NCBI GenBank assembly: GCA_958295745.1
Contig: OY282370.1
Coordinates: 1,295,724 to 1,359,723, forward strand
Direction: 5' to 3'
Source: an uncultured Acidimicrobiia bacterium
Lineage (GTDB): Bacteria; Actinomycetota; Acidimicrobiia; Spongiisociales; Spongiisociaceae
DNA: 64,000 nucleotides
Shown here: positions 12,415 through 64,000 of the stretch, piece by piece
How positions within the stretch are numbered: position 1 is the first letter of the stretch
How the letters are laid out: each line of letters starts with the position of its first letter
Notes under the pieces: model-generated
What the model saw: only the letters and a program-made list of their open reading frames with translations
What the model was told of the DNA's origin: nothing
Databases searched by the model: none
Made by a program: the position numbers and the translations under genes

Positions 12415-12684
12415 CCGCAGCCCCCCCTTGCTTTGCGCCTCCTATAACCCCCGCCGAGGCGGTGATGTGTTCCTCCAATGATCCACCCTGGAGAATACTG
12501 ATGATTGCCATTAGACGGGTTGATGACCGTTGAATTACCCACCCACCTTCCCCGCGTTTTCGCAAAGCCTCGCAATAATTGGCAGGAAGGGGACCCCTAT
12601 GGTTTCGTGCCTACCGGCGCCGAGGGACCGGCCCTCTCCCGAAGGCGCGGCGGGTTGGGTGGAAGATCCCTGTACCCGGTTTCT

Positions 12685-17388: not shown

Positions 17389-17623
17389 CGAACTCCTCTC
17401 ACCGCTCTGGCAAATACTCAAATCGACTCCGCCTAATGAAGAGAGACGATAGCACCGTCTACCAAGACCCTTGGAGTTGCCCCGGTTTTGTGGACGGTTT
17501 TCGGCCTTGGGTTTCATACATCTCTGCTCTGAACACATACCGGCCTTGCCCCGAAAGGCCTGCCGGAGTCCGGAACGGAGCGCCTACTCTCACCGCCGGT
17601 CCGGAGCCGCTACCGTGCTCTCT

Positions 17624-18975: not shown

Positions 18976-20175
18976 ATGACCGGCGCGCCGTCCAATGCCC
19001 GGACCCGGAAACCGGTTATCAGCCGCCTGGTCCGCGCCGCGGCCCACTCGCCTATCTCCGAGGCGCGCGCCCGGGCGGCCGTCGAGCCTTCCGGCACCGG
19101 CCTTCCCCTCTTGGACGTGGCCCAGGCCACCCCCGGCTATCCGCCCGCGCCAGGGCTGCAGCGGCGGATGGCCGAGCTGGACCATCGAGCGGTCTCCCGC
19201 TACGGGCCGGTCCTGGGCGAGGCGCCGCTGCGCGAGGCGCTCGCCCGGGAGCTGACCTTCGCCTACCGGGCCCCGGTGCGACCGGAACAGGCGGCGATCA
19301 CCGCCGGGGCCAACCAGGCCTTCTGCCTGGCCGTCTCGGTGTTGTGCGAGCCGGGCGACGAGGTGATCCTGCCCATCCCCTACTACTTCAACCACGACAT
19401 GTGGCTGGCCATCAACGGCGTCGAGGCGGTATACCTGCCCTGCTCCGGAGACATGCTTCCCTCCCCGGCGGACGCCGACGCCCTGCTGACGGAACGAACC
19501 AGGGCGGTGGTGCTGGTGACGCCCAACAACCCGACCGGGCGGGTGTACCCCCCCGCCCTCATCTCGGCCTTCGCCGACCTGGCCGCAGAAAGAGGAATCT
19601 GCCTGATCCTGGACGAGACCTACCGGCATTTCCGGAGCACCGCGGAGCCCGCCCATCATCTGTTCAGGGACCCGGACTGGGACCGGCACCTGATACATAT
19701 CGACAGTTTCTCCAAGGTGTACGCCATAACGGGCTACCGGGTGGGGGGCTTGGCCGCCTCCCCCGGCCTGCTCACGGAAGCCGAGAAGGTCGCAGACTGC
19801 CTGACCATCTGCCCCAACCGCCTAGGCCAGGAGGCGGCCCTCTACGGGCTGGGCCGCCTGGAAGGGTGGGTCGAGGAAAACCGCCGGGCGGCGTCCCGCC
19901 GGATCGGGGAGTTCACGAAGACGGCGGGCGGGCGCCCCTACGAAGTGGCCTCGGCGGGCGGCCACTTCGTCTACGTGCGCCATCCTTTCGAGGGGGCGCC
20001 GGCCCGGGAGGTGGCCCAGCGCCTGTACGACGAGCAGGCCGTGTTGGCCCTGTCGGGGGACATGTTCGGCCCCGGCCAGGACCGCTACCTGCGGCTGGCC
20101 TTCGCCAACGTCTCCGACTCCGACGTCCCGGAGCTGGCCCGCCGCCTAGCCGAGAGCGCCCTGATGTTCGCCTAG
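18976..20175 (+). CDS. PLP-dependent aminotransferase (class I/II fold)
   Basis: SFSKVYAITGYRVG lysine motif, and the NPTG box. Confidence 0.75.
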   Translation: MTGAPSNARTRKPVISRLVRAAAHSPISEARARAAVEPSGTGLPLLDVAQATPGYPPAPGLQRRMAELDHRAVSRYGPVLGEAPLREALARELTFAYRAPVRPEQAAITAGANQAFCLAVSVLCEPGDEVILPIPYYFNHDMWLAINGVEAVYLPCSGDMLPSPADADALLTERTRAVVLVTPNNPTGRVYPPALISAFADLAAERGICLILDETYRHFRSTAEPAHHLFRDPDWDRHLIHIDSFSKVYAITGYRVGGLAASPGLLTEAEKVADCLTICPNRLGQEAALYGLGRLEGWVEENRRAASRRIGEFTKTAGGRPYEVASAGGHFVYVRHPFEGAPAREVAQRLYDEQAVLALSGDMFGPGQDRYLRLAFANVSDSDVPELARRLAESALMFA

Positions 20176-20627: not shown

Positions 20628-22448
20628 TTACTCCACGGTGACGCTCTTGGCCAGGTTCCGCGGCTGGTCGATGTCGCGGCCCAGCAGGCGGGCGGTGTGG
20701 TAGGCGAGCAGCTGGAGCGGAACTGCGGCCAGGATCGGGGACAGCAGATCGGCGGTGCGGGGCACCCGCAGGACACGGTCCGCCACCAGGTCGATCTCTT
20801 CGTCGCCCTCGTAGGCCACGGCTATGACCATGGCGCCCCGGGCCTTCACCTCCTGGAGGCTCAGCAGCAGCTTGCCGTATAAGTTCTGCTGGGTGGCCAC
20901 CGCCACCACCGGGGTGCCTTCGTCGACCAGCGCCAGCGTGCCGTGCTTCAGCTCCCCTGCGGGCATGGCCTCCGCATGTATATAGGAGATCTCCTTGAGC
21001 TTGAGGGCGCCCTCCATAGCGCTCGCGTAGTCGAGTCCCCGGCCTATGTAGTAGACGCTGGACGCTCCGGCCAGCTCTCCGGCCAGCAGGCGAAAGGGAT
21101 CCTGATCAGCGAGGACGCGGGCCGCCTTGTCGGAGAGGGAGTGCAGCTCTTCGACCAGCTTCCGCTCCTGGTCGGGGCCGGTGACGCCCCGCGACCGCCC
21201 CAGCCGGAGGGCCAGCAGGCATTCCCCCACCAGCATGGCCAGGTAGGCCTTGGTGGAGGCGACGGATATCTCCGGCCCCGCCCACGTGTAGAGGACTTCG
21301 TCCGCTTCCCGGGCCAGGCTGGACCCCACCACGTTGGTGAGGGCCAGCAGGCGGGAACCGCGCCGGCGGGCCAGCTTGGCGGCGGCCAGCGTGTCGGCGG
21401 TTTCACCGGACTGGCTGACGGCGAGCGTCAGGGAGCGGTCCCCGATGAGAGGATTCGAATAGCGCAGCTCGTGGGCGTATGCCACCTCGGTCGGCACGGC
21501 GGCCAGCCGCTCGAACATGGTCCGCCCGACCAGGCCGGCGTGGTAGGCGGTGCCGCAGGCGGTGATCCATATCTTCTGCACGTCCGCCGGATCGCCTTCC
21601 GCCCATGACAGGTCGGCCAGCGCCTTGCCGCCGTGGATGCGGCCGCCGAGGGTGCGGGCGATCACCTCGGGCTGTTCGTGTATCTCCTTGAGCATGAAGT
21701 GGGCGAAACCGGCTTTCTGAACCGATTCGTTGTCCCATTCGGCGGTAAAGGAGCGCCGCTCGACGGGACGGCCTTCGAGGGTCTCGATCCGGGCGCCGTC
21801 CCTGGTCACCTCGGCTATCTCACCGTCTTCGATGATCAGGAACTCGCGGGTGTAGTCCAGCACCGCCGGCATGTCGGAGGCCAGGAAGGTCTCCCCCTCT
21901 CCGAGTCCCACCACCAGAGGGCTGATCATCCGGGCCGCCACGATCCGGCCCGGTTCGCGGGAGGTCATCGCCACCAAGGCGTAGGCCCCGGAGGCCCGGC
22001 GCACCGCCCGGCGGACGGCTTCCTTCAGGTCTCCTTCGTACTCGAGGGCCAGCAGATGGGCAAGCACCTCCGTGTCGGTCTCGGAGCGGAACCCGACTCC
22101 GGCGCCCTCCAGCTCGCTCCGCAGGGCCCGGAAGTTCTCCACGATCCCGTTGTGCACCACCACGAAATCGCCTGTGTTGTCGCTGTGAGGGTGGGCGTTG
22201 CGGTCGGAAGGCGCCCCGTGGGTGGCCCAGCGGGTGTGCCCGATGCCTGCACGGCCGGGAAGCGGCGCCTCCTCCAAGCGGGCCAGCAGCCGATCGAGCT
22301 TGCCTTCGGCCTTCGATATGGCCACCGACCCGTTGTGGGCCACGGCGAGGCCGGCCGAGTCGTAACCCCGGTATTCCAGACGGCGCAACCCGTGGACCAG
22401 AACTTCCTGCGCCGGCCGGGGACCCACATAGCCGACGATCCCGCACAT
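20628..22448 (-). CDS. glmS: Glutamine--fructose-6-phosphate aminotransferase
   Basis: MCGIVGYVG N-terminus (catalytic Cys2) and two SIS domains. GGAGG lies 8 nt upstream of the ATG at 22448. Confidence 0.9.
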   Translation of the reverse strand: MCGIVGYVGPRPAQEVLVHGLRRLEYRGYDSAGLAVAHNGSVAISKAEGKLDRLLARLEEAPLPGRAGIGHTRWATHGAPSDRNAHPHSDNTGDFVVVHNGIVENFRALRSELEGAGVGFRSETDTEVLAHLLALEYEGDLKEAVRRAVRRASGAYALVAMTSREPGRIVAARMISPLVVGLGEGETFLASDMPAVLDYTREFLIIEDGEIAEVTRDGARIETLEGRPVERRSFTAEWDNESVQKAGFAHFMLKEIHEQPEVIARTLGGRIHGGKALADLSWAEGDPADVQKIWITACGTAYHAGLVGRTMFERLAAVPTEVAYAHELRYSNPLIGDRSLTLAVSQSGETADTLAAAKLARRRGSRLLALTNVVGSSLAREADEVLYTWAGPEISVASTKAYLAMLVGECLLALRLGRSRGVTGPDQERKLVEELHSLSDKAARVLADQDPFRLLAGELAGASSVYYIGRGLDYASAMEGALKLKEISYIHAEAMPAGELKHGTLALVDEGTPVVAVATQQNLYGKLLLSLQEVKARGAMVIAVAYEGDEEIDLVADRVLRVPRTADLLSPILAAVPLQLLAYHTARLLGRDIDQPRNLAKSVTVE

Positions 22449-22916
22449 GTGCGCCTCCAACCCACTCGTTCGACAACCACGGTAGACACTACTAGGGACA
22501 GGGCGGCATATAGCGTCTCACGGCAGGCCGGTGCGGACGGTCAAGCGCTGTCTGCCCCAAGGGTTCGGGGCAACCCGTTTCCGAGGAAGGCGGCCCCTGC
22601 CCACCCTCCTACTCACAGAACCCGCCTTCGCTCGGCATCCTGCAGGTCAGTCTCGTCGTTGCCGTAAAGCGCCTGGCCAATCGGGGTCGGTAAAACCGGG
22701 CTTCGCACCTCGAGAACGCGAAAAACGACCCACCTCCGCCCCCTTCGGGCCCGGCCCCCACCTCCTCCACTCCGTTTGAACGGTCGTCTTGGGCGTGCGG
22801 GGCTTGGGAACCCTCGGCGCTCAACACGACCTGGAATGATCACCGCCCTCCGGAGCAGAAGTGATATTTGTGATATCGGTATATATTGTTATACAACATT
22901 CTTGGGACAAGTTCAA
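22449..22916 (-). promoter_or_regulatory. glmS promoter plus about 430-nt structured leader (element copy C)
   Basis: Minus-strand -35 TTGAAC (22911-22916), 17-nt spacer, -10 TATAAC (22888-22893), with the shared upstream GAACAAGGGT motif. The 5' hairpin ATCACTTCTGC..GCGGTGATCAT is shared with copy D. GGGCCGGGCCCGAAGGGGG is present, and the GAGAACGCGAAAAACG box appears in inverted orientation (plus-strand 22712-22727). Confidence 0.45.
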
Positions 22917-22944
22917 GACCCTTGTTCGAAATCTCTTCGGTTTT

Positions 22945-24357
22945 TCAGCCGAGCTCGCCTGCCACGACTTCTGACAGCTCCAGGGCGGTCGAACGGGCCG
23001 TCTCCATGGTGGGGGCCTCGACCATCACCCTGACCACGGGTTCGGTGCCCGAAGCTCGAACCAGGATCCGCCCGTCTTCGCCCAGCTCCGCTTCGGCGGC
23101 CCGAACCGCCTTCCACACCCGGGCCGCCCCGTCCAGGTCCTTGGACCGGACCGGCACGTTCTCCAAGACCTGAGGGAACTCGACGAGAGCCTCCCTGCGC
23201 AGGTCGCGTATCGGGCGCCCGGCGGCCGCCGCCACCTCCAGAAGCCGGACGGCGGTGCGCAGCCCGTCCCCGGTACGGGCCCGATCTAGCTGGATCACAT
23301 GGCCGGACTGCTCCCCGCCCAGGAAAGCCCCATGCCGCAACATCGCCTCCAGCACGTACCTGTCGCCCACCCGGGTCTCGATCAGCTCGATGCCTTCCCG
23401 GCGCATGGCCCGGCGGAACCCCAGGTTGGACATGACGGTGGCCACCACCCGGTCGAGGCGCCCCAGGCGTCGCAGGTGACGGGCGATGACGGCCAGGATC
23501 ACGTCGCCGTTGGCGGCCGCACCGTCCTCGTCCACCACGATCAGGCGATCGGCGTCCCCGTCGAAACACAGCCCGATCCGCCCTCCGGCCGCCGCGGCCA
23601 GGCTCTCCGGGCAGGTGGCCCCGCACCCGTCGTTGATGTTCATGCCGTCCGGCGCCCCGAAGTACTCCTCCACGTCGGCGCCGAGTTCTTCGAACAGGCG
23701 CCTAGCCGCGCCCGAAGCCGCCCCGTTGGCGCAGTCGAGGGCCAGCCGGAGGTCTGCCAGCCCGCCCGCAGGGGTCTGGCGGAGGATGCCTTCCAGATAA
23801 CGATCGACCGCATCCGGGAAGGGACGGCGGAGGCCGATGCCCGCCCCGGTCGGCGCCTTCCAAGGCCCTCCCTTTTCCAGCCGGCTCTCGATCTCCCCCT
23901 CTGCGCCGTCGTCCAGCTTGCCGCCCCGCTCGTCGAAGAACTTGAAACCGTTGTCGGGGGCGGGATTGTGGGAGGCCGACACCATCACCCCGAGGCGGGC
24001 GCCCAGATCGGAGACCAGATCCGACACCCCGCCCACCGGAACGACCCCCGCATCGATGGTGTTCACCCCCACCGAATGGAAGCCGGCCTGCAGCCCGGCG
24101 CCGAGCATCTCCCCGGAGCGGCGGGTGTCGCGCCCCACCAGGACCGCCCCTCCGCCGATCAGCTCGCCGGCCGCCCGGCCCAAATCGAACGCCAAGGGCA
24201 CGCCGAGGTCGAGATTGGCCACCCCTCGGATGCCGTCGGTGCCGAACAGTCGGCGGGATCGGACGGGCCCGGAAGTCGGGGCCCCTGGAAGAACGTCTGG
24301 CTCCGCCGATTGCGGCCCCTGTCGGCCTGCCCCTCGGCGCCCAGGTATTTCAGTCAT
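22945..24357 (-). CDS. glmM: Phosphoglucosamine mutase
   Basis: ..LFGTDGIRG.., the active-site region SASHNPAPDNG and the ..GDGDADR.. motif. The N-terminal approximately 25 aa may be an extension, because the start is uncertain. Confidence 0.85.
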   Translation of the reverse strand: MTEIPGRRGAGRQGPQSAEPDVLPGAPTSGPVRSRRLFGTDGIRGVANLDLGVPLAFDLGRAAGELIGGGAVLVGRDTRRSGEMLGAGLQAGFHSVGVNTIDAGVVPVGGVSDLVSDLGARLGVMVSASHNPAPDNGFKFFDERGGKLDDGAEGEIESRLEKGGPWKAPTGAGIGLRRPFPDAVDRYLEGILRQTPAGGLADLRLALDCANGAASGAARRLFEELGADVEEYFGAPDGMNINDGCGATCPESLAAAAGGRIGLCFDGDADRLIVVDEDGAAANGDVILAVIARHLRRLGRLDRVVATVMSNLGFRRAMRREGIELIETRVGDRYVLEAMLRHGAFLGGEQSGHVIQLDRARTGDGLRTAVRLLEVAAAAGRPIRDLRREALVEFPQVLENVPVRSKDLDGAARVWKAVRAAEAELGEDGRILVRASGTEPVVRVMVEAPTMETARSTALELSEVVAGELG

Positions 24358-49928: not shown

Positions 49929-50585
49929 CTACCCCTCCTTGATCAGTATCACCCCGTAGACGAAGCCGAGAGGCCCCATCCTCCACAGATCCAACCTCCG
50001 AAGGGCGGTTTCCCGAAGGACGGCATCCGCATAGAGCCGCTCGGGGGGCGGGAGCTTGTCGAGGGAACGGTGCAGGTAGCGGTATTCGGCCGCCGCGCCG
50101 ATGGTGAAACCGGCCGCCGGAACGATCACGGCCGAACCGAGCCGGTGGAGGGCCGCGGCCGCCTTCCGTCGGGGGCGGGCCAGGTCGACGATGCCGGCCA
50201 TCCCGCCGGGGCGCAACACCCGCGCGATCTCGGCCAGGGCGCCTCCCACCGAATCGAGGTTGCGGAACACGAAAGCCGAGAAGACCGCGTCGAAGGCTCG
50301 GCCGGAGAACGGCAGGGCCTCGCCCACCCCCGCCACCCGCACGGTCATCGGGTTGAGAGCCAGCATCTGGGACACCGGGTCCAAGGCGACCGCGGGGCGG
50401 TCCCCGAACAGGGGGCGGGCGGCGCCGGTACCCGAGCCGAGGTCGAGCAGGCGGCCGGGGGGCAGCCGAACCATGACGGACCGCCGCCACTCCTGGTCCC
50501 TTCCGAGCGAGAGCACCCGGTTGAGGCGGTCGTATCGGCGGGCGATCTTGGCGAAAACAGCACCCGGGTCGGGGTCGGGGTTCAT
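49929..50585 (-). CDS. Class I SAM-dependent methyltransferase (UbiE/MenG-like)
   Basis: ..LLDLGSGTGA.. SAM motif I. The ATG at 50585 overlaps the serS stop. Confidence 0.6.
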   Translation of the reverse strand: MNPDPDPGAVFAKIARRYDRLNRVLSLGRDQEWRRSVMVRLPPGRLLDLGSGTGAARPLFGDRPAVALDPVSQMLALNPMTVRVAGVGEALPFSGRAFDAVFSAFVFRNLDSVGGALAEIARVLRPGGMAGIVDLARPRRKAAAALHRLGSAVIVPAAGFTIGAAAEYRYLHRSLDKLPPPERLYADAVLRETALRRLDLWRMGPLGFVYGVILIKEG

Positions 50586-51835
50586 CCGACCCGATCGAAC
50601 CCCACATAGGGCCGCAGCGCCTCGGGCACCGCGAAGGATCCGTCTTCCTGCTGGTGGTTCTCCAACAGGGCGATGAGCAGGCGGCCCACCGCCGCCGCCG
50701 TCCCGTTGAGGGTGTGAACCAACCGGTTGCCGCCCTCCGACCGGAACCGTATCCGCAGCCGGCGGCTCTGAAAATCGGTGGTGTTGGAACACGAGGTGAT
50801 CTCTCGGTAACGCTGCTGCGACGGGATCCAGGCTTCGATGTCGTACTTCTTGGCGGCCGAAGCGCCGAGGTCCCCGGCCGCCACGTTCACAACTCGGTAG
50901 GGGATCTCGAGGCGCCGGACGATCTCCTCTTCGAGGGACAGCAGCATCTCGTGCTCGTCCCAGGACCGCTCCGGACGGCAGAAGGAGAACATCTCCACCT
51001 TGTCGAACTGGTGGACCCTGAATATCCCGGCGGTGTCCTTGCCGTGGGCGCCTGCCTCCCGCCGAAAGCAGGTCGAGAATCCGGCGTAGCGGATCGGCAG
51101 GTCGGCCTCTTCGAGAACCTCTCCGGCGTGGTAGGCGGCCAAGGCGACCTCGGAGGTCCCGATCAGGTAGAGGTCGTCCCCGGCGAGCTCGTACACCTGC
51201 TGATCTTCGTCCGGGAAGAACCCCGTTCCGAACAGGGCCTGCTCACGTACCAACACCGGCGGGACCATCGGGGTGAAGCCCTTATCCGCCAGGAAATCGA
51301 GCACCATGCGCACCAGACCGAGCTCGATGATCACCGCCGGGCCGGTCAGGTATGCGAAACGGGCACCGGACACCTTGGCCGCCCGCTCGATGTCGATCAT
51401 TCCGAGGGCGGCGCCCAGCTCGCGATGGTCTTTCGGGGCGGCGCCGTCCGCCGCGGGCTCGCCCCAGCGCCTGATCTCGAGGCTGTCTTCGTCCGAGAAC
51501 CCTTCCGCCGCCGAAGGATGGGCCAGGTTGGGCACCCGCACCCACATCTCGGTGAAACGCTCGTCCAGCTCGTCGGCCCGGGCAAGCCTGTCCCGGTAAG
51601 CCGAAGCCACCTCCGAGGCCCTGGCTATGGCCTCCTGCTTGGAACCGCCTTCGAGCCGGGATATCTGCCGGCCCAGCCGCCGTTGCTCGGCGCGCATCCC
51701 CTCGGCCTCGGCCCGGACCCGGCGGCGCGCCGCGTCCGTCTCCGCCATCGCACCTACATCGAGATCGAGGCCCCTGCGGGCCAAGGCGGCCTCCAGCAGG
51801 CCGGGGTTCTTCCTGAGAATCGAGATGTCGATCAT
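50582..51835 (-). CDS. serS: Seryl-tRNA synthetase
   Basis: 417 aa with an N-terminal coiled-coil arm and class II motifs (..FRREAGAHGKDTAGIFRVHQF..). Confidence 0.9.
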   Translation of the reverse strand: MIDISILRKNPGLLEAALARRGLDLDVGAMAETDAARRRVRAEAEGMRAEQRRLGRQISRLEGGSKQEAIARASEVASAYRDRLARADELDERFTEMWVRVPNLAHPSAAEGFSDEDSLEIRRWGEPAADGAAPKDHRELGAALGMIDIERAAKVSGARFAYLTGPAVIIELGLVRMVLDFLADKGFTPMVPPVLVREQALFGTGFFPDEDQQVYELAGDDLYLIGTSEVALAAYHAGEVLEEADLPIRYAGFSTCFRREAGAHGKDTAGIFRVHQFDKVEMFSFCRPERSWDEHEMLLSLEEEIVRRLEIPYRVVNVAAGDLGASAAKKYDIEAWIPSQQRYREITSCSNTTDFQSRRLRIRFRSEGGNRLVHTLNGTAAAVGRLLIALLENHQQEDGSFAVPEALRPYVGFDRVG

Positions 51836-54898: not shown

Positions 54899-55062
54899 GT
54901 CCGAATCCTCCTCGTCTACGGAACATCCTACCCCGTCCCTTCCTGCGAGGGGAGCGCCGGACGGGTAGCGTGGCCTGGGAGGGTGCTGAGCAATACACCG
55001 ACGGCCTGCCGGTCGCCGAGCAGCACCCTTCTCGAAATTCGAAGGCCGGGAAGGGGCTGCCG

Positions 55063-56643
55063 ATGTTCGACGTAGTGGTCCGGGGCGGCCTGTTGGTGGA
55101 CGGAACCGGCGCGGCGGCCCGGCGGGCCGACATCGGCATCGAAGGGGAACAGATCACCGCCATCGGGGACCTGGGCGGCGCCGAATCTCGCCTGGCGCTG
55201 GACGCCGGCGGGCTGGCGGCGGCGCCCGGGTTCATCGACATACACAGCCACTCCGATTTCACCCTGCTGGTCGACCCGAGAGCCCACAGCCAGATACTCC
55301 AGGGAGTCACCACCGAGCTGGTGGGCAACTGCGGCCACGGATGCGCTCCCCTGGGTCCGAGGATCGAGGCCTACACGGGCAACATCTACGGGTATCAGGA
55401 CCTCATCCCGATCGACTGGACCTCCATGGAGGGCTACCTGGCCCGCCTGGAAGAAGCCGGGCCGGCCGTGAACGCCGCCGCCCTGGCGCCGAACGGGAAC
55501 CTCAGGTTGACGGCCATGCCGGACGTCCGGCGGCCCGCCGACAAGGACGAGACCGCCCTGATGGTCCGGCTGCTGGAGGAAAGCCTCGACGCGGGGGCGT
55601 TCGGTTTCTCCACCGGGCTCGAATACCCCGCCGAGCGGGCGGCTTCGGAGGAGGAGATCGTCGAGCTGTGCCGCGCCGCGGCCCGCAAGGGCGGGCTCTA
55701 CGCCACCCACGAGCGCAACCGGGACCTGCTGGCCGTGGAAGCGGTCGAAGAAGGGGTGCGGGCCGCGGAGGCGACCGGGGTGCGGCTGCAGGTGTCGCAC
55801 ATCATCCCTCGGCGGGGCGGGCCGCCGGACTCCCTGGAGCGGAGCATCGAAGCGGTCGAGCGGGCCTGCGCCCGGGGCCTGGACGCGGCGTTCGACGCCC
55901 ACACCCGGCTCCACGGCATCACCAACCTCAGCGCGGTGCTCCCCTCTTGGGCCTCGGCGGACGGCCCGGGGCAGATGAACAGACATTTGAGGGATGCGGC
56001 AACACGGGACCGCCTGAAGCAGTACCGCAGCATCATCTCCTCGTTCGGCCTGGGGGGCTGGGATGGGGTGGCCCTGTTCTGCAGCGAAGGCTCCCCGGAC
56101 AAGGTGGGCCGCAGCATCGCCGAGCTGACGCCGCCGGGCGGGGATCCCTACGACACCATGTACGACCTGCTGCTCGCCGAAGGGGGCGACCCGCACGGGC
56201 CGCTGCTGATATGCCGCTCCTACGACGAAGACATGCTGGCCGACACCTTCCGCCATCCGCTCTGCACCACCGAATCGGACGCCACCGCCCTGTGCCTCGA
56301 CGGCCCGCTGGCCGATACCGCCTTCCTCGGCGCCTACACCTGGGCCGGGTCCTTCTTCCGCACCATGGTCCGCGAGCGGCGTGAGCTGACCCTGGAAGAG
56401 GCGGTCCACAAACTCACCGCCCAGCCGGCCGGCCGGATCGGGCTCGGTGACCGGGGCCGCCTGCTGAAAGGTATGAAAGCGGACGTCGTGGTGTTCGATC
56501 CCGCCGAGTTCTCGGACCGCGGAACCTTGGACGACCCCAACCGGCCGGCGGCGGGAGTGCACCATGTCCTGGTGAACGGCGGGCTCACCGTGGTGGACGG
56601 AAAAGAAACCGGCCGACGCAGCGGCCGGGTGCTGCGCCGCTGA
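55063..56643 (+). CDS. N-acyl-D-amino-acid deacylase (D-aminoacylase) family amidohydrolase
   Basis: MFDVVVRGGLLVDGTG...PGFIDIHSHSDF metal-binding HxH. 526 aa. Confidence 0.75.
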   Translation: MFDVVVRGGLLVDGTGAAARRADIGIEGEQITAIGDLGGAESRLALDAGGLAAAPGFIDIHSHSDFTLLVDPRAHSQILQGVTTELVGNCGHGCAPLGPRIEAYTGNIYGYQDLIPIDWTSMEGYLARLEEAGPAVNAAALAPNGNLRLTAMPDVRRPADKDETALMVRLLEESLDAGAFGFSTGLEYPAERAASEEEIVELCRAAARKGGLYATHERNRDLLAVEAVEEGVRAAEATGVRLQVSHIIPRRGGPPDSLERSIEAVERACARGLDAAFDAHTRLHGITNLSAVLPSWASADGPGQMNRHLRDAATRDRLKQYRSIISSFGLGGWDGVALFCSEGSPDKVGRSIAELTPPGGDPYDTMYDLLLAEGGDPHGPLLICRSYDEDMLADTFRHPLCTTESDATALCLDGPLADTAFLGAYTWAGSFFRTMVRERRELTLEEAVHKLTAQPAGRIGLGDRGRLLKGMKADVVVFDPAEFSDRGTLDDPNRPAAGVHHVLVNGGLTVVDGKETGRRSGRVLRR

Positions 56644-56963: not shown

Positions 56964-58634
56964 ATGAATTGGAGGCAGGGCAGGGGACGGAAGGCCGTGC
57001 TGGGGGTGATGTTGACCGCGGCGCTGGCGGCGGGTTCATGCAGCACCGAAGACCCGGGCGGCGGGGAGATAGTCCTGGCGGTGGAACAGTGGCCCGAGTG
57101 CCTCAACCCCATCACTTCCTGCGCCAACGCCTCCTGGCTGTCATGGGCGGTATTGGTGCATCTGCAGCCGGGGCTGATGGAGTTCGACGCCGACAACTCC
57201 CTGCGGGCTTCCCCGGTGCTGGTGGAAGCCCCCACGACGGACAACGGGGGCGTGACGGTGAACGACGACGGCACCTTCACGGTCACCTACCGACTCGACC
57301 CGGACGCCCGGTGGAGCGACGGGACGCCCATCACCAGCACCGATGTGTGGTTCACATGGAGGGCCACGCTCGACACCCGGGGCTCGCTGCGGACCGTCGG
57401 CTATGACCTGATAACCGGGGTGGACGCCGCCGACCCCCGCACCGCGGTGGTCACCTTCAGCAAACCCTATGCACCGTGGCGTTACATGTTCCAAGGCCTG
57501 CTCCCCGCCCACGCTTTCGACGGGGAGACCGACATAGCCGATCACTGGAACGACTCGATTCCCATCTCCGGCGGGCCGTGGCGCCAGGAGTCTTGGAGTC
57601 AGGACGAGCAGGTCCTCGTACCGAACGAGAACTACTGGGTGACCGAGCGCATACCGTTGGTCGATCGGGTGGTGATGGTGCCCCGTGAGAACACCGAATC
57701 CGAGACGGAGGCGCTGCAGGCCGGAGAGGTGATGGCCGCCCTTCCCCAGCCATTTCCCGGCGCCCGGGAGCGCTTCGGCGGCAACCTGGCCTTGGTCGAT
57801 GGACCCGGCACCTTCATCGAGGGCCTGTGGTTCAACCAGATAGCCCCCGACCGGCGCTTCGAGATCACCGCCAACCTGCGCCGGGCGGTGGCCTACGCCC
57901 TCGACCGGGAGCGGATCGCCGAAGCGGCTCTCGGCTCGATCATCGAAGATCCCCAAGTACTGCAGTGCGCCGGTTGGAACCCGGCCTTCGGCGACTGGTG
58001 CGGCGACGACTTCGCCGGCTACGTGCAGGACATGGCGGCCGTCACCGAGCTGCTGACCGCCGACGGTTGGTCCCGGCCCGACCCCGAAGGCCTGTGGGTC
58101 AACGCGGCGGGCGAGGAGCTGATACTGCAGTGGAACACGGTGGCGGGGAACAAACGCCGTGAGGAGGTTCAGGCGCTGGTGGCGGAGATGACCGAGCCGT
58201 TCGGCATCGGTTGGGAGATGATCAACTACGACCCGAGTGAGCTGTTCCAGCGCCGGCTGCCGGCGATGGACTTCGGTCCGGTGGCGCTGTACGCATCCCC
58301 GACCGAACCGGATCCGTCGGTGACGAGGCTGTACGACATCGACGGCATACCCGGCGAAGCCAACGGGTTCAGCGGCCAGAACCACATGGCCTACGCCAGC
58401 CCCCAAGCCAGCGCTCTGGCCTTCGCCATCGACGACGCGATAGACGAGGCGGCCCGGCTCGAGCTGGCGGCCGAGCTCGGCGCACTGCTGGCCGCCGACG
58501 TACCCTGGATCCCCCTCTACGTACTGCCCAACCTCCTAGTGTGGAACTCCACCGTGCTGGAGGGTCCGGGAGAGTGGGTCTCCAGCGTGTACGGCGGTTT
58601 CTACGACATGTACGACTGGACGGTCATCGGCTGA
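56964..58634 (+). CDS. ABC transporter substrate-binding protein, family 5 (peptide/nickel type), probably lipoprotein
   Basis: Signal peptide ending LAAGSCS and a family-5 SBP fold signature. An alternative GTG start at 56937 lies within GGAGGGTG. Confidence 0.7.
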   Translation: MNWRQGRGRKAVLGVMLTAALAAGSCSTEDPGGGEIVLAVEQWPECLNPITSCANASWLSWAVLVHLQPGLMEFDADNSLRASPVLVEAPTTDNGGVTVNDDGTFTVTYRLDPDARWSDGTPITSTDVWFTWRATLDTRGSLRTVGYDLITGVDAADPRTAVVTFSKPYAPWRYMFQGLLPAHAFDGETDIADHWNDSIPISGGPWRQESWSQDEQVLVPNENYWVTERIPLVDRVVMVPRENTESETEALQAGEVMAALPQPFPGARERFGGNLALVDGPGTFIEGLWFNQIAPDRRFEITANLRRAVAYALDRERIAEAALGSIIEDPQVLQCAGWNPAFGDWCGDDFAGYVQDMAAVTELLTADGWSRPDPEGLWVNAAGEELILQWNTVAGNKRREEVQALVAEMTEPFGIGWEMINYDPSELFQRRLPAMDFGPVALYASPTEPDPSVTRLYDIDGIPGEANGFSGQNHMAYASPQASALAFAIDDAIDEAARLELAAELGALLAADVPWIPLYVLPNLLVWNSTVLEGPGEWVSSVYGGFYDMYDWTVIG

Positions 58635-58787
58635 TCACACCGCCCCCGCCCGTCAACACCTGCCCGCCCCGACCGGGTCCGAGTGAATAGTTTCAATCCA
58701 TAATCCCAGGTCAGAGAGCCGCACGCCCGTACCGCCCCCTCCCCTCCCGTCAACCCCGCAACCGAGCGGGGTAGAATCCCCCGCATC

Positions 58788-59996
58788 ATGAGGCCCCTCG
58801 AGGACATAAGGGTCACAGCCGTCGAACAGTACGGCGCCGGTCCGTTCGCATCCTTCCACTTGGCCGCCTTGGGCGCCGAGGTCATCAAGGTCGAGGACCC
58901 CCGGTTCGGGGGCGACATAGGCCGTTACATACCCCCCTTCCAGGAAGGGGAGGACAGCCTGTTCTTCGAGACCTTCAACCGCAACAAGAAGAGCCTGTCC
59001 CTCGACCTGACCGTTCCCGAGGGCCGGCGCGTGTTCGAAGATCTGGTGGCCGAGAGCGACGCCGTGCTCTCGAACCTGCGGGGGGACGTACCGGCCAAAC
59101 TGCGGCTGCGGTACGAGGACCTGGCGGAGGTCAACCCGAAGATCGTCTGCGTCTCGCTCAGCGGATTCGGAATGACCGGCCCGCTGGCGGACCAGCCGGG
59201 GTACGACTACATCCTGCAGGGCCTGGCCGGATGGATGAGCCTGACAGGAGAACCCGGCGGCCCGCCCACCAAGACCGGAATATCGCTGGTGGACTATTCG
59301 ACCGCGTACGTGGGGGCGCTGGCGCTGCTGGCCGGCGTGCACGCCGCCCGGCGCGACGGGCGGGGCATGGACTGCGACATCAGCCTGTACGACACGGCGG
59401 TGTCGCTCCTCACCTACCCGGCCACCTGGCTCCTCAACCGGGGATGGGAACCCCGCCGGACCACCCGCTCCGCCCATCCGTCCCTGGTGCCCTTCCAGCT
59501 GTTCAAAGGGAGCGACGACCGGTGGTTCGTGGTGGGGTGCCCGAAGGAGAAGTTCTTCCGGCGGGTGGCGGAGACGGTGGGGCGGCCCGAGCTGGCCGAT
59601 CATCCCGACTACCTCACGTTCGCCGACCGGGCAAAACACAGCGAGGCGCTGATCGGGATACTCGACGATCTGTTCGCCGCCCGGACGGCCTCCTACTGGA
59701 TCGACCGGCTGAGGGAGGCCGGCGTTCCGACCGGACCGGTGCAGGACACGGCGGAGGCGCTGGCACACCCGCACACCGCCGCCCGGAAACTGATCGTGGA
59801 GACCCCCCACGATGTGTTCGGACCGGTCCGCGCTCCGGCCAGCCCGGTGCAGGTGGGCGATCCGGACGACCTCTCCTACGAGAGAGCGCCCCGGCGCAAC
59901 GAGCACGCCCGGGAGATACTGGAGGGCCTGTTGGGCTACGACGAGGCCGCCGTCCGGCGTTTCGCGCAACGGGGCGCCTTCGGGGAGGCCGGGTGA
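58788..59996 (+). CDS. CoA-transferase family III (CaiB/BaiF)
   Basis: ..IRVTAVEQYGAGPFASFHLAALGAEVIKVE.. 402 aa. Confidence 0.75.
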   Translation: MRPLEDIRVTAVEQYGAGPFASFHLAALGAEVIKVEDPRFGGDIGRYIPPFQEGEDSLFFETFNRNKKSLSLDLTVPEGRRVFEDLVAESDAVLSNLRGDVPAKLRLRYEDLAEVNPKIVCVSLSGFGMTGPLADQPGYDYILQGLAGWMSLTGEPGGPPTKTGISLVDYSTAYVGALALLAGVHAARRDGRGMDCDISLYDTAVSLLTYPATWLLNRGWEPRRTTRSAHPSLVPFQLFKGSDDRWFVVGCPKEKFFRRVAETVGRPELADHPDYLTFADRAKHSEALIGILDDLFAARTASYWIDRLREAGVPTGPVQDTAEALAHPHTAARKLIVETPHDVFGPVRAPASPVQVGDPDDLSYERAPRRNEHAREILEGLLGYDEAAVRRFAQRGAFGEAG

Positions 59997-61342
59997 CCCT
60001 GACCGAACGGTTCGCCGAGTGGAGCGCCGGACTGGAACGGGCGCCGACCGAGGTGCGGAGGGCCGCCAAGTGGCACATACTGGATGCCATAGGCGTGGGG
60101 CTGGCGGCGGCCCGGCTGGGGGTGGTGGACTTCGCGGTGGCGGAGGCGATGAGCTACGGAGCACCGGAGGAATCCGGCGTCATCGGCTACAGCACCCGCC
60201 ATCCTGCCCCGATGGCCGCCCTGGCGAACGGCGCCCTCATCCACGGGCTGGACTTCGACGACACCCACGCGGCCGCCATCCTGCACGGCTCGGCCGCCGT
60301 GCTCCCCGCGGTGCTGGCCGTCTCGGAGGTCGTCGATGCGGACCTCGACGCCGCGGCCGACGCCTTCGTGGTCGGACTCGAGACGGCGATACGCATCTCC
60401 GCCGCCGCCCCGCGCAAGTTCCACCTCCGGGGATTCCACGCCACCAGCGTGGTCGGGATATTCGGCGCCGCCCTGGCCGCCGCCCGTCTGCTGGGCCTCG
60501 ATCCGTCGGCGGCGGTAAACGCCATGGGCCTGGCCGGCAGCCAGGCTTCCGGCTGTCTCGAGTTCCTCTACACCGGCACCTCGACCAAGCCCTTCCATCC
60601 CGGTTGGGCGGGGCTGGCGGCGGTCATGGCGGCGCGGCTGGCCGCACGGGGCGCGGCGGGGCCGGCCACGGTGCTGGAAGGCGAGCGCGGCCTCTACCGG
60701 GCCTACGCCGACGCATCCGTCGATCCGGACCGGGTGACCGCCTCCCTCGGCGGCGAATGGGAAACCACCCGGATGACGGTCAAACCGTATCCGGTCTGCC
60801 AGTACTCCCATGCCACCCTCGACGCGCTGGCCCTGTTCCCCACCGACCTGCAGCCCGGCGGGATCGCCCGCATAGACATCGGCATGCCCGAGGCCTCGCT
60901 GACGGTGGTGGCCGAACCCAGGGAAGGCCGGCTGCGGCCCCGCTCGGCTTCCGAAGCCAAGTTCAGCGTGCAGTGGAACGCGGCCGCCCTGCTGATCGAC
61001 GGCTGCCTGAGCGTCGATCACTTCCGGGAGGAGCAGCTCGCCAGGGAGGACATCCGCGACCTGGCCGCTCGGGTGCACGTGCATCGGCGTCCGTTCGACG
61101 GCCCCCCGGCGGAAGCGCCCGCAGAAGTGACCATCACCATGCACGGAGGGGCGGCCCTCACCCGCAGCCTGACCAGGAGCTCCGCCGACCCGGAGCGGCC
61201 GCAGGACGATGGCGCCCTGCTCGACAAGTTCACCTCCAACGCCGCCGACCGCATCGAGGATCCGGCCAGATTCGCCAAACTGGTGCTGGAGGACGGCGGA
61301 CTGCCCGTCAGGGAGCTGATGGCCTCGACGGGCGGCAGATGA
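59993..61342 (+). CDS. MmgE/PrpD-family protein (2-methylcitrate dehydratase-like)
   Basis: GTG start overlapping the upstream stop (GTGA). Typical PrpD N-terminal and C-terminal domains. Confidence 0.7.
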   Translation: MTLTERFAEWSAGLERAPTEVRRAAKWHILDAIGVGLAAARLGVVDFAVAEAMSYGAPEESGVIGYSTRHPAPMAALANGALIHGLDFDDTHAAAILHGSAAVLPAVLAVSEVVDADLDAAADAFVVGLETAIRISAAAPRKFHLRGFHATSVVGIFGAALAAARLLGLDPSAAVNAMGLAGSQASGCLEFLYTGTSTKPFHPGWAGLAAVMAARLAARGAAGPATVLEGERGLYRAYADASVDPDRVTASLGGEWETTRMTVKPYPVCQYSHATLDALALFPTDLQPGGIARIDIGMPEASLTVVAEPREGRLRPRSASEAKFSVQWNAAALLIDGCLSVDHFREEQLAREDIRDLAARVHVHRRPFDGPPAEAPAEVTITMHGGAALTRSLTRSSADPERPQDDGALLDKFTSNAADRIEDPARFAKLVLEDGGLPVRELMASTGGR

Positions 61343-62526
61343 CCCCGTCCGCCATCCGTCCGGCTGATTTCCCCTGGTTCGACTACTCGCGATATTCCTT
61401 CTCGCTCGGCCTCTCCCTGGGGCCGGACCGGGCCGCTCTCTCCGGCCACTCGGCCTCTGCGTACGACCCGGGCCGGGGCCGGATCGTGGTCGAGGGGGGG
61501 ATGGCCGAGCAGAGCCGCACCGCCTACCGGAAGATCGAGGCCATCCTGCGCTCCGCCGGGCTGGGCTTCGGGGACGTGGTCAGGGTTGTGGAGAACGTGA
61601 CCGCCGAAGGTATAGACCACTATGCGGAGGCGGAGGCGGTCAGGGCCGAGGTGTTCGGCCCGCACACACCTGCGGTCAACACCGTGGTGGTGCACCGTCT
61701 GCTGCGGCCGGGCGCCCTCGTCGAGATCGAGGTCACCGCCGACCGCGGCGGGGGCGCGGCCTGCGGAGGGACCCCGCACCGACCGGCCCGGGCCGCCGGG
61801 GATATCGTCTACCTGAGCACCGTGCACCCCTACGACGCGGAGGGCGAGCTGGTGGGAGAAGGAGACCCCGAGGCGCAGGTCCGCCAGATCTTCCGGAACG
61901 CCGAAGCCGTCCTGAAGGCGTGCGGGCTCGGCATGGAGAACGTGGTGAAGACCCTGGAGATGATCCGCCCCGAAGCGCTGGAGGGTTACAGGTACACGGG
62001 CCGGCCCCGGCGGGAATACCTCGGGCCGGTATACCCGGGCGCGGCCGGCATTCTCCAGGATCGGGTGGCGCCCGACGACCGGGTCCTGATCTCCTACGAC
62101 TTCACGGCGTCCCGCGCCCCGAGGTCGGCCGTGAATCCGGGATGGGACCGCTACCGGCGGCTCACCTACTCCCCGGCGGTCCGGGCGGGCGGCATGTTGT
62201 TCATGTCGGGCCAGGCGGCGCTCGATCCCGAGACCGGGCGGGCCGTTTTCCCTGGTGACGTGGCCGCCCAGGCGGATTACACCTACGCCAATATCCTCGA
62301 TGTCCTGGAAGCGGCCGGGATGGGTCCCCGCAACCTGATCAAGACCATCGAATACGTTGCCCCCGAAGGCCTGGCCGAATATCGAGAGGTGGCGGCGGTG
62401 CGCAGGCGGCGGCTGTGCGAACCCTGGCCGGCGTCGACGGGTGCGGTCTGCCATTCGCTGCTGCGGAAGGAGTTCCTGATCGAGATCGACCCGCTGGCCA
62501 TGGCCTTCGAAGGAACCGGGCCGTGA
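61339..62526 (+). CDS. Tandem-domain Rid (RidA/YjgF/L-PSP) family protein
   Basis: Two Rid-like domains in one 395-aa chain. ATGA overlap with the upstream stop. Confidence 0.65.
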   Translation: MTPSAIRPADFPWFDYSRYSFSLGLSLGPDRAALSGHSASAYDPGRGRIVVEGGMAEQSRTAYRKIEAILRSAGLGFGDVVRVVENVTAEGIDHYAEAEAVRAEVFGPHTPAVNTVVVHRLLRPGALVEIEVTADRGGGAACGGTPHRPARAAGDIVYLSTVHPYDAEGELVGEGDPEAQVRQIFRNAEAVLKACGLGMENVVKTLEMIRPEALEGYRYTGRPRREYLGPVYPGAAGILQDRVAPDDRVLISYDFTASRAPRSAVNPGWDRYRRLTYSPAVRAGGMLFMSGQAALDPETGRAVFPGDVAAQADYTYANILDVLEAAGMGPRNLIKTIEYVAPEGLAEYREVAAVRRRRLCEPWPASTGAVCHSLLRKEFLIEIDPLAMAFEGTGP

Positions 62527-63674
62527 CCGGCCGGGAGGTTGCGGTCGTCGGGGTGGGCGAGTCGGAGCTGGGGGTGACGGGTTGCTCGATCTACCAGCTC
62601 CAGACCCAGGCCGCCCGGGCGGCGCTCGAGGACGCCGGGCTGCGGATGTCCGATGTGGACGGCCTAGCGACCGCGGGGGTGGAGCGGTTCAGCGCCACCG
62701 CCATGGCCGAATACTGGGGGATGCGGCCCGCGTGGGTGTCGTCGACAATGGAAGGCGGGTCGTCGTTCGAGCTGATGGTGGGGGCGGGGGTGGACGCCAT
62801 CCGCTCCGGACGCTGCCGGGTGGTGTTGATCTCGTACGGATCGAACCAGCGGTCGGCCGCCTCCCGCCGGCTGCGCGGGATGGTCCAGCCGCACACGCCC
62901 GCCGACCAGTACGAGGCGCCCTACGGGGTGCTGAGCCCCCTTTCCCTCTATGCGATGGCGGCCCAACGGCACTTCCACGAGTACGGGACCACCGGGGAGC
63001 AGCTGGCCGAGGTCGCAGCGGCGGCCAGGGAGTGGGCGCTGCTGAACCCGAAGGCCTACCGCTACGGCGCCGGGCCGATAACCGTCGACGATGTTCTGTC
63101 GTCCCCGATGATCTCGTCCCCCCTGCACCTCCTGGACTGTTGCCTGGTGGTGGACGGAGGGGGGGCGGTGGTGCTGACCTCCCTCGACCGGGCCCGCGAC
63201 CTTCCCAAACCGCCGGTGCGGGTGCTGGGATGCGGCCAGAGCGTCACCCACATCACGATGGCGCAGGCGCCCGACCTCACCCGGACCGGGGCCGTCGAGT
63301 CCGGCGCCGCCGCCTTCGCCGAGGCGGGGATCGGGCCGGAGGACGTGGACGCGGCGGAGATCTACGACAGTTTCACGATCACCGTGCTGCTGACTTTGGA
63401 GGCGCTGGGGTTCTGCGGGCGGGGAGAGGGCGGACCCTTCGTGGAGGGGGGCAGGACCCGGCCGGGCGGCGCCTTCCCCATGAACACCAACGGGGGCGGT
63501 CTGTCCTATTGTCATCCCGGTATGTACGGGGTGCTGCTGCTGGTGGAGGCGGTGCGCCAGCTCCGGGGGGAGGCGGGGGACCGCCAAGTGCCGGACCCGG
63601 AGATAGTCCTGGCCCACGGCACCGGCGGGGTGCTCTCGAGCCACGGCACCGTGATCCTGGGGGTGGATCGATGA
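62523..63674 (+). CDS. Thiolase-like protein (SCP-x/nonspecific lipid-transfer thiolase type)
   Basis: GTG start overlapping the upstream stop. Thiolase-like fold with a Cys in ..VVGVGESELG.. context. It partners with the DUF35 protein that follows. Confidence 0.7.
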   Translation: MTGREVAVVGVGESELGVTGCSIYQLQTQAARAALEDAGLRMSDVDGLATAGVERFSATAMAEYWGMRPAWVSSTMEGGSSFELMVGAGVDAIRSGRCRVVLISYGSNQRSAASRRLRGMVQPHTPADQYEAPYGVLSPLSLYAMAAQRHFHEYGTTGEQLAEVAAAAREWALLNPKAYRYGAGPITVDDVLSSPMISSPLHLLDCCLVVDGGGAVVLTSLDRARDLPKPPVRVLGCGQSVTHITMAQAPDLTRTGAVESGAAAFAEAGIGPEDVDAAEIYDSFTITVLLTLEALGFCGRGEGGPFVEGGRTRPGGAFPMNTNGGGLSYCHPGMYGVLLLVEAVRQLRGEAGDRQVPDPEIVLAHGTGGVLSSHGTVILGVDR

Positions 63675-64000
63675 CCCTCGTAACCTCCCCGGAGGCCCGG
63701 GAATGGTGGGAGGCCGCCAAAAACCGCCGCCTGCTGGTCCAGTCGTGCCGAACCTGCGGACACCGCCAGCATTACCCCCGGGCCCTGTGCCTGCGGTGCG
63801 GCGGGGTCGATCTGGGTTGGGTGGAGGCGTCCGGCGGCGGAACCATCTACTCGTTCACCCACAGCCACCGGTCGCCGGATCCCGCCGCCTTCGAGCCGCC
63901 CTACACCATCGCCATCGTTACCCTCGACGAAGGACCCCGGCTCCTGACCACCGTTACCGGGCCCGGCATCCGGTGCGACGCCCGGGTGCGGCTCGAGTGG
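63671..64000 (+). CDS. DUF35 OB-fold/zinc-ribbon protein, 3' end outside window
   Basis: C-x2-C...C-x2-C zinc ribbon (CRTCGH..CLRCGG), then an OB-fold. It is the typical partner of SCP-x-type thiolases. Confidence 0.6.
   Translation, partial: MTLVTSPEAREWWEAAKNRRLLVQSCRTCGHRQHYPRALCLRCGGVDLGWVEASGGGTIYSFTHSHRSPDPAAFEPPYTIAIVTLDEGPRLLTTVTGPGIRCDARVRLEW

Follow-up and report, generated by a model that had tools for sequence, protein, structure and literature searches.

A conserved acidimicrobial gene set with a triple-Rid protein and a cysteine-less thiolase-fold/DUF35 pair, possibly for the breakdown of substituted succinates via CoA esters

The itaconate cluster of Pseudomonas and Cupriavidus encodes, as its PrpD-family member, an (S)-(R)-methylsuccinate isomerase (Msi) that acts on the free acid only, and the isomerase gene adjoins those for a family III CoA-transferase (Ict), an acyl-CoA dehydrogenase (ACAD; methylsuccinyl-C4-CoA dehydrogenase), the hydratase Ich and a citramalyl-CoA lyase, being always located beside the methylsuccinyl-CoA dehydrogenase gene (Gonner et al. 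2025, PMC12290011). The characterised members of the PrpD family all use a C4 1,4-dicarboxylate backbone, which a conserved set of residues (His, Asp/Glu, His, His, Lys and Lys) keeps in place (PMC12290011). In the aldolases Ltp2 and Sal, for which a DUF35 protein is an obligatory partner, the Tyr of the YDHF (Ltp2) or YDCY (Sal) motif is the catalytic base of retro-aldol cleavage (Rolfe et al., PMC12329534). The locus described here lies at the end of a 64,000-nucleotide stretch of contig OY282370.1 from an uncultured Acidimicrobiia bacterium (the whole stretch being referred to as the window), and consists of five overlapping genes that encode a family III CoA-transferase, a PrpD-like protein, a triple-Rid protein, a thiolase-fold protein and a DUF35 protein.

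It seems, with roughly even confidence, that the gene set to which these genes belong breaks down a substituted succinate (i.e. a C4 1,4-dicarboxylate with a C2/C3 substituent) via CoA esters and retro-aldol cleavage. In the proposed scheme, the PrpD-like protein, probably an epimerase or isomerase, would act on the free acid via an enolate to give the stereoisomer that is taken by the family III CoA-transferase, which would convert the acid to its CoA thioester with succinyl-CoA as the donor. An ACAD would then form the 2-enoyl-CoA, to which MaoC hydratases would add water, and the thiolase-fold/DUF35 pair would split the resulting 3-hydroxyacyl-CoA in a retro-aldol manner into a short acyl-CoA and a carbonyl compound, without oxidation and thiolysis. 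The triple-Rid protein would be accessory, and our best guess for its reaction is the protonation and hydration of an intermediate of the enamine, imine or enol type without an alpha-carboxylate, for example a CoA-bound one. That the substrate should be a dicarboxylate is suggested by the CoA-transferase being nearest to dicarboxylate transferases, and that it should be a substituted succinate by the invariant residues of the PrpD-like protein, together with the substituted succinate backbone on which the characterised family members act. We infer that the scheme merges the logic of the itaconate/methylsuccinate, steroid igr and benzylsuccinate (Bbs) systems. The original prediction of an operon for organic-acid catabolism through CoA thioesters is supported, and clusters for steroid side-chain and benzylsuccinate degradation do resemble the locus, with Ltp2 and BbsB among the relatives of the thiolase-fold protein.

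The five open reading frames, all on the + strand, fill the last 5.2 kb of the window (Table 1), and the Pfam-level assignments made earlier hold: in order, CoA_transf_3, MmgE_PrpD_N and MmgE_PrpD_C, Ribonuc_L-PSP, Thiolase_C_1, and zf-ChsH2 with OB_ChsH2_C. All four junctions are 4-nt start/stop overlaps, exactly as first described, and each of the four internal starts has a purine-rich, Shine-Dalgarno-like stretch ahead of it. The overlaps had been taken to imply tight stoichiometric co-expression, but this was an over-reading. With the genes of the window called by a position-specific GC log-odds caller (for 70% GC DNA; it reproduces published calls), 15 of the 57 same-strand adjacent pairs (26%) overlap by 4 nt, and still 11 of 53 outside the operon, so that the overlaps mark an ordinary operon and give no special signal of stoichiometry. 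The four complete genes are intact and under purifying selection, with a dN/dS of 0.10-0.28 between the window and L004 (an 84% relative).

Further sequence comes from L084, a metagenomic contig reached through a 98%-identical PrpD entry. It runs colinear with the final 14 kb of the window (98.3-98.7% identical) and shows how the locus continues: the DUF35 gene is followed by a 387-aa ACAD gene that starts at the very next base, while on the opposite strand, convergent with these genes, lie the FAS1_DH-type and MaoC subunits of a heteromeric hydratase, an Ich-like MaoC protein (MC_hydratase family) and an LLM oxidoreductase. Following this synteny, the unit comprises about ten genes (a six-gene operon and four convergent genes) instead of five. 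The five overlapping genes of the original prediction are thus real, but the run is longer, with the ACAD next in line in this 98.5%-identical strain. Judged by sequence and gene order, the five reading frames form the beginning of a conserved, predicted catabolic gene set.

The genomes closest to the window are metagenome-assembled genomes (MAGs) of 'Candidatus Spongiisociaceae', which are sponge-associated Acidimicrobiia (82-84% protein identity). A scan of one genome per species with the alignment of the Rid protein gave 80 loci, in which the window-type gene set is found in L004, L005 and L008 (Spongiisociaceae), in L012 and L060 (other Actinomycetota) and in the gammaproteobacterial L020 (Ectothiorhodospiraceae). 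Look-ups of PrpD homologues added three loci, from Dactylosporangium roseum, Rhodococcus wratislaviensis and a JGI metagenome. In the cultured D. roseum (CP073721.1, 5,119,333-5,136,709), the whole set forms a single 11-gene operon with mostly 4-nt overlaps behind a GntR/FCD regulator, in the order Ich-like, LLM, CoA-transferase, PrpD-like, triple-Rid, MaoC_a, MaoC_b, thiolase-like, DUF35, ACAD and HpcH/HpaI lyase, and its proteins are 42-68% identical to those of the window and L084. The R. wratislaviensis and JGI loci hold genes for the CoA-transferase, the PrpD-like protein, (MaoC_a/b), the thiolase-like protein, DUF35, ACAD and HpcH, without Rid, Ich-like and LLM genes, and the Rhodococcus version sits amid extra ACADs, short-chain dehydrogenases/reductases (SDRs) and ligases. 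Since equivalent operons thus exist without Rid, the core would consist of the CoA-transferase, the PrpD-like protein, a hydratase, the thiolase-like/DUF35 pair and the ACAD (with or without HpcH), the triple-Rid protein being optional. The Rid-less R. wratislaviensis locus (L086) also carries an arylmalonate-decarboxylase-family (Amdase) gene at 12168-12932, between the ACAD and HpcH lyase genes, which hints at a substituted malonate intermediate in this Rhodococcus variant.

In sister sponge MAGs (L001-L003 and L006; 80-82% relatives) the operon is decaying. In L001-L003 the PrpD-like gene is a 47-codon remnant and the thiolase-like gene is in fragments, while L006 has no detectable PrpD homologue and a thiolase-like gene cut down to 342 aa; IS110 transposase genes have been inserted upstream of the CoA-transferase gene in L001 and L002. 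No description of the gene set as a whole as a pathway was found in the literature searched, where no paper brings PrpD, DUF35 and a CoA-transferase together, and the original judgement that this is not a canonical pathway stands. The set is conserved beyond its lineage. Half of it parallels the itaconate/methylsuccinate cluster reported in 2025, which makes it less exotic than was thought.

Among PDB entries, the PrpD-like protein matches iminodisuccinate (IDS) epimerase best (141 bits) and also cis-aconitate decarboxylase (127 bits), while no 2-methylcitrate dehydratase is found among its PDB matches at E<1e-3. A canonical 2-methylcitrate dehydratase PrpD was rejected, as the NCBIfam PrpD equivalogs score far under their cut-offs (18-47 bits versus 458-950) and a prpBC context is missing. 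When residues are mapped through the alignment to IDS epimerase (that to E. coli PrpD was too distant and was not used), H84, D87, H98, H149, K199 and K264 are kept, corresponding to His88, Glu/Asp91, His102, His152, Lys202 and Lys266 of Msi. The second catalytic Tyr (Tyr148 in Msi, Tyr145 in IDS epimerase; Met in cis-aconitate decarboxylase) is replaced by His144. None of these seven sites varies among 125 homologues, which extend to Burkholderiales proteins of 35% identity. By these residues the protein belongs to a distinct, uncharacterised subfamily with an invariant His144, for which a substituted succinate is almost certainly still the substrate. An ACAD gene is present in the same operon as the PrpD-like gene, three to five genes downstream.

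The PDB matches of the thiolase-fold protein include the uncharacterised 4u4e (395 bits), 9myr, TcLtp2 (6ok1, 199 bits) and BbsB (145 bits). Its region around the thiolase nucleophile (NNCATGS in SCP2-type enzymes) reads STMEGGSSFELMV and has no Cys, and the HDCF motif of SCP2-thiolases is replaced by YDSF, both in 21 of 21 homologues. In a phmmer alignment, IYDSFT falls on Y294DHF of TcLtp2, the third residue of the motif being Ser, neither Cys nor His. The general acid is Tyr344 in Ltp2 and Cys304 in Sal. A second Tyr (LSYCHPG) is found two residues ahead of a conserved His, comparable to Tyr344 of Ltp2 (AYIHG), in a region where the HMMER alignment is gapped; it is kept in the actinobacterial/gamma clade and is Asn in the Burkholderiales clade. 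A Cys-less site with YDSF for HDCF points to retro-aldol chemistry, not to thiolysis. The original label of a 'thiolase/DUF35 retro-Claisen pair' is therefore not supported, and the protein is best read as a predicted Ltp2/Sal-like retro-aldolase of a new YDSF subtype; its NCBIfam name would be acetyl-CoA acetyltransferase (PRK06158, 486 bits). A true SCP2-type thiolase was rejected because the nucleophilic Cys is missing. The DUF35 protein (129 aa at full length in L084) has a rubredoxin-like Zn ribbon with CxxC...CxxC and an OB fold, and is a stand-alone protein. The pairing is kept in all loci that carry the thiolase-fold gene, with the DUF35 gene always following it.

The CoA-transferase matches Pfam CoA_transf_3 with 382 bits over profile positions 1-365 of 366. 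Its best NCBIfam models are those for succinate-glutarate and succinyl-CoA:mesaconate transferases (about 230 bits, far below the cut-offs) and its best PDB match is SUGCT (9br7, 225 bits), by which it is classed as a family III CoA-transferase nearest to the dicarboxylate transferases. The window also contains a second family III CoA-transferase paralogue (17615-18739, +), which is 35% identical to the enzyme of the D. roseum operon and has a class I/II aminotransferase gene (18976-20175, +) downstream. Of the hydratases, the small Ich-like MaoC protein has RipB/Ich as its best NCBIfam model (195 bits versus a cut-off of 340), and the heteromeric MaoC pair resembles HadA/HadB. A tblastn search with D. 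roseum HpcH as the query gave no HpcH lyase in either the window or the 21 kb of L084; the lyase is present in D. roseum, L012, L073, L086 and L087, and in L020 nearby on the opposite strand.

The Rid protein contains three Ribonuc_L-PSP stretches according to Pfam, not two. When aligned to E. coli RidA, for which we take the sequence used to be the reference (it carries R105, Y17, S30, C107 and E120 at the published positions), the Arg105 site reads Val113 in domain 1, Ala236 in domain 2 and Ser366 in domain 3, with no variation in these columns across 20 homologues of 58% identity or more. At the Glu120 and Tyr17 sites, Glu (E131, E382) and Phe21/Tyr277 are found in domains 1 and 3, while domain 2 is degenerate (Asp254). 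In RidA, Arg105 binds the carboxylate of the substrate and is essential for imine hydrolysis (PMC4433059), and no hydrolysis of imines was seen with Rid subfamilies that lack it; '3x-RidA' fusions have been presumed to be covalent trimers, with no function assigned (Niehaus et al. 2015, PMC4433059). With Arg105 missing, the triple-Rid protein would not bind the carboxylate of a 2-imino acid in the manner of RidA. The earlier label of a double Rid enamine/imine deaminase is thus not supported, as there are three domains, none of which has the Arg that RidA needs, and a canonical RidA 2-iminoacid deaminase was rejected. The gene in L084 (11347-12564) is called at 405 aa, compared to 395 aa in the window, and a 9-nt (3-codon) insertion near the 5' end is part of this difference.

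An AlphaFold2 (AF2) model of the triple-Rid protein was built on the alignment (pLDDT 92.6, pTM 0.92). Foldseek against the PDB returned the chorismatases FkbO and Hyg5 as the only full-length matches (TM 0.53-0.64, 15-18% identity), while an ordinary single Rid chain covers one third of the model; as modelled, the protein is a single-chain pseudo-trimer of the YjgF/Rid fold. The family comprises at least 934 clusters at 90% identity (E<=1e-10), or 142 representatives at 50% identity (E<=1e-30), all named merely 'RidA family'. In the 74 loci with a called triple-Rid gene, the commonest neighbours are a MaoC subunit (59 loci), a FAS1_DH-type MaoC subunit, usually immediately downstream (56), an ACAD (43), an acyl-CoA synthetase (35), a family III CoA-transferase and an LLM oxidoreductase (25 each), the thiolase-like/DUF35 pair and an old-yellow-enzyme reductase (18 each), and a double alpha/beta-hydrolase (15). 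This profile indicates that the triple-Rid protein belongs to acyl-CoA catabolism. In Actinomycetota MAGs (L022, L027, L048 and L063-L065), the triple-Rid gene is located beside CN_hydrolase, aldehyde dehydrogenase and heme-oxygenase-like genes, in Alphaproteobacteria (L040, L054, L072 and L079) beside hydantoinase A/B genes, and in Burkholderiales (L087) with an old-yellow-enzyme reductase and DUF1330. This pattern may point to amide- or imide-derived substrates, e.g. substituted succinimides or maleimides.

Several observations weigh against the breakdown of a substituted succinate by the proposed scheme. At the position of the second base, His takes the place of Tyr throughout the PrpD subfamily, so that the PrpD-like protein is not the known isomerase and could instead be a dehydratase or decarboxylase. 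Two different hydratases, the LLM oxidoreductase and the triple-Rid protein are superfluous in the scheme, and part of the chemistry is left unexplained. The HpcH-type lyase of D. roseum, L012, L086 and L087 (and of L020, on the opposite strand) is absent from the window and L084. Finally, the repeated occurrence of C-N hydrolases next to triple-Rid genes of other phyla hints at nitrogen-containing substrates. An alternative reading would be an itaconate/methylsuccinate (branched C5-dicarboxylate) cluster of the Pseudomonas/Cupriavidus type with accessory genes, in which the CoA-transferase is Ict, the PrpD-like protein methylsuccinate isomerase, the ACAD methylsuccinyl-C4-CoA dehydrogenase and the Ich-like protein itaconyl-CoA hydratase, citramalyl-CoA being cleaved by the aldolase/DUF35 pair or by the HpcH lyase. 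Homologues of four of the five cluster genes do exist in the lineage of the window (and of all five in D. roseum), RipB/Ich is the best NCBIfam model of the Ich-like protein, the CoA-transferase matches the mesaconate transferase model, and the dicarboxylate-binding residues of PrpD are conserved. It is nevertheless unlikely, since none of the 125 homologues has the Tyr148 of the isomerase, all carrying His there, every equivalog score falls far short of its cut-off, the HpcH lyase was not found in the window or L084, five to six further conserved genes have no role in that pathway, and the known isomerase is 96% proteobacterial (PMC12290011).

In a pathway for a nitrogen-containing acid (an N-substituted aspartate, another amino acid, or an amide- or imide-derived acid), the amidohydrolase would free the acid, the ACAD would form a CoA-bound enamine, and the triple-Rid protein, here a genuine hydrolase of enamines or imines, would set ammonia or an amine free. 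This is in line with the D-aminoacylase-family gene and the peptide-type binding protein upstream, with IDS epimerase as the best PDB match of the PrpD-like protein, and with the CN_hydrolase, hydantoinase A/B, Amidohydro_3 and double alpha/beta-hydrolase genes beside triple-Rid genes in other phyla, while Arg105 would not be needed for a substrate without an alpha-carboxylate. However, Arg105 is missing from all three domains, and imine hydrolysis was not seen with Arg-less Rid subfamilies (PMC4433059). Outside the sponge lineage, the operon has no link with the amidohydrolase and binding protein, the conserved set has no aminotransferase, amine oxidase or ammonia-handling gene, and the triple-Rid protein is missing from otherwise equivalent operons. 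Such a pathway is a live alternative, though an unlikely one. A module for side-chain removal from a bulky ring compound (a steroid, a terpenoid or an aryl/alkyl-succinate), comparable to igr (ChsE-ChsH1/H2-Ltp2) or Bbs, is quite unlikely. The combination of ACAD, heteromeric MaoC, Cys-less thiolase-fold aldolase and DUF35 follows igr enzyme logic, BbsB and BbsA are detectable homologues, and the Rhodococcus version lies among extra ACADs, SDRs and ligases, but there are no other steroid or aromatic catabolic genes in the window or L084, a single ACAD gene is present instead of a ChsE1/E2 pair, the gene list of L084 holds neither a BbsCD-type dehydrogenase (no SDR) nor a BbsH-type crotonase, and the PrpD-like protein and SUGCT-like transferase point to small dicarboxylates. 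A bolder and very unlikely proposal is that the Arg-less triple-Rid protein is a dedicated catalyst that works in a chorismatase-like way, protonating and hydrating a heteroatom-substituted double bond. Its substrate would be a CoA-bound enamine or enol ether, formed by the ACAD out of an N- or O-substituted succinyl-CoA, and the operon as a whole would be an undescribed oxygen-independent route for C-N or C-O cleavage in (1,2-dicarboxyethyl)-amines or -ethers, or in succinimide- or maleimide-derived acids, fed by different C-N hydrolases across phyla.

Upstream of the operon, the D-aminoacylase-type gene and the gene for a peptide-type ABC binding protein are both present as described earlier. 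The best PDB match of the amidohydrolase is D-aminoacylase (1rjq, 232 bits), next to N-acyl-D-glutamate deacylase (3gip, 214 bits), and its start may be at about 55063, following the call in the 98.5% strain. Together with the binding protein it is found beside the operon in the sponge-symbiont lineage only, being absent at L085 (D. roseum), L020, L060 and L012, and by this distribution it is a lineage-specific neighbour outside the conserved core. Five other loci of the Rid-centred scan (L041, L042, L046, L074 and L082) carry a distant Amidohydro_3 homologue (28-29% identity) next to the triple-Rid gene. In related MAGs such as L008, genes for OppB, OppC and an ATPase (about 3 kb; L008 4406-7432) are located between the binding-protein gene and the CoA-transferase gene; in the window they are replaced by 148 bp of unrelated DNA (58635-58782). 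With the permease and ATPase genes missing, the binding protein of the window is orphaned, and L004 is without the binding protein as well.

A consensus scan for promoters and terminators gave nothing useful at the start of the operon and no terminator within it. By inspection, a TAGAAT hexamer resembling a -10 element (58772-58777) lies in the loop of a 6-bp inverted repeat, GCGGGG-(TAGAATC)-CCCCGC, with its last base 10 nt ahead of the ATG of the CoA-transferase gene. As this gene has no Shine-Dalgarno sequence, transcription may yield a leaderless mRNA or one whose leader is very short, and the inverted repeat around TAGAAT may combine a leaderless start with an operator. TAG[A/G][A/G][A/G]T or TAGAAT is found at a similar position in L004, L005, L008 and L001, whereas L006 has only GTACAAT.

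Elsewhere in the window, three large surface proteins (711, 698 and 1538 aa) with S-layer-homology domains and Big_1 or FG-GAP repeats are encoded on the - strand (7119-9254, 9289-11385 and 12685-17301). A long run of short, tightly packed genes at about 24400-46800 (-) looks like a ribosomal-protein cluster, and genes for GlmS, GlmM and seryl-tRNA synthetase are located at 20628-24222 (-) and 50582-51835 (-). The GC content of the window is flat (0.65-0.72). With the ribosomal-protein-like cluster and the GlmS, GlmM and seryl-tRNA synthetase genes nearby, the operon appears to be part of the core chromosome, without an obvious island.

Table 1. Position of the operon genes and upstream features in the window
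Feature	Position	Strand	Length	Remarks
Amidohydrolase, D-aminoacylase / N-acyl-D-Glu deacylase family	54970..56643	+		Pfam Amidohydro_3
SBP_bac_5 (peptide/opine-type) ABC substrate-binding protein	56964..58634	+		Pfam
Candidate promoter element	58766..58784	+		Sequence inspection; consensus scan did not call it
CoA-transferase	58788-59996	+	402 aa	
PrpD-like protein	59993-61342	+	449 aa	GTGA junction (59993) with CoA-transferase gene
Triple-Rid protein	61339-62526	+	395 aa	ATGA junction (61339) with PrpD-like gene
Thiolase-fold protein	62523-63674	+	383 aa	GTGA junction (62523) with triple-Rid gene
DUF35 protein	63671 to beyond 64000	+		ATGA junction (63671); cut by window end

If substituted succinates are indeed the substrates of this gene set, the catabolic logic of branched dicarboxylates would extend to Actinomycetota and sponge symbionts, with a different solution for C-C cleavage. 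It would give a non-steroid role to Ltp2-type aldolase/DUF35 pairs, which are automatically annotated as acetyl-CoA acetyltransferases, define a new PrpD subfamily by its His/His pair, and provide the Arg-less triple-Rid family with a metabolic context. With the whole operon present in the cultured Dactylosporangium roseum, these questions are directly testable. Two of the five functional labels given earlier need changing (Rid deaminase and thiolase), and the assembly is nearer to known systems than had been held.

Compared to the itaconate/methylsuccinate cluster (Ict, Ich, Ccl, Mcd, Msi; PMC12290011), both systems have a family III CoA-transferase, a PrpD-family protein, an ACAD and a small Ich-type MaoC protein, and D. 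roseum also shares the HpcH lyase, which the lineage of the window does not have. The dicarboxylate-holding residues of the PrpD-family proteins are identical, whereas Tyr148 of Msi corresponds to an invariant His, and the window-type set adds the triple-Rid protein, a heteromeric MaoC, the Cys-less thiolase-fold/DUF35 pair and the LLM oxidoreductase. The itaconate cluster is proteobacterial, while the window-type set is mostly actinobacterial. With the igr-type Ltp2/Sal systems (PMC12329534, PMC11321319) it shares the Cys-less thiolase fold, a Tyr-Asp-x-Phe motif, the Zn-ribbon/OB partner of the DUF35 type, a two-subunit MaoC and an ACAD, and a Tyr that may correspond to the second Tyr of Ltp2 is conserved in the actinobacterial/gamma clade of window-type proteins. 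The motif differs, however (YDSF versus YDHF in Ltp2 and YDCY in Sal), the DUF35 protein stands alone outside a steroid gene context, and the thiolase-fold protein scores 199 bits to TcLtp2 compared to 395 bits to the uncharacterised 4u4e. In benzylsuccinate beta-oxidation (BbsEF, BbsG, BbsH, BbsCD, BbsAB), the activation of a substituted succinate by a family III CoA-transferase is likewise combined with an ACAD, a hydratase and C-C cleavage by a thiolase-fold/DUF35 pair, but the window-type set is without the BbsCD alcohol dehydrogenase and the BbsH crotonase, its cleavage enzyme has no thiolase Cys, and its proteins score 28 and 149 bits with the BbsA and BbsB equivalogs, versus cut-offs of 250 and 750. 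The triple-Rid domains are closest in sequence to the RidA subfamily, yet all are without Arg105. With the chorismatases FkbO and Hyg5 the triple-Rid protein has in common three YjgF/Rid-fold domains per chain, arranged as a pseudo-trimer, the difference being the low identity (15-18%) and an operon without shikimate or secondary-metabolite context.

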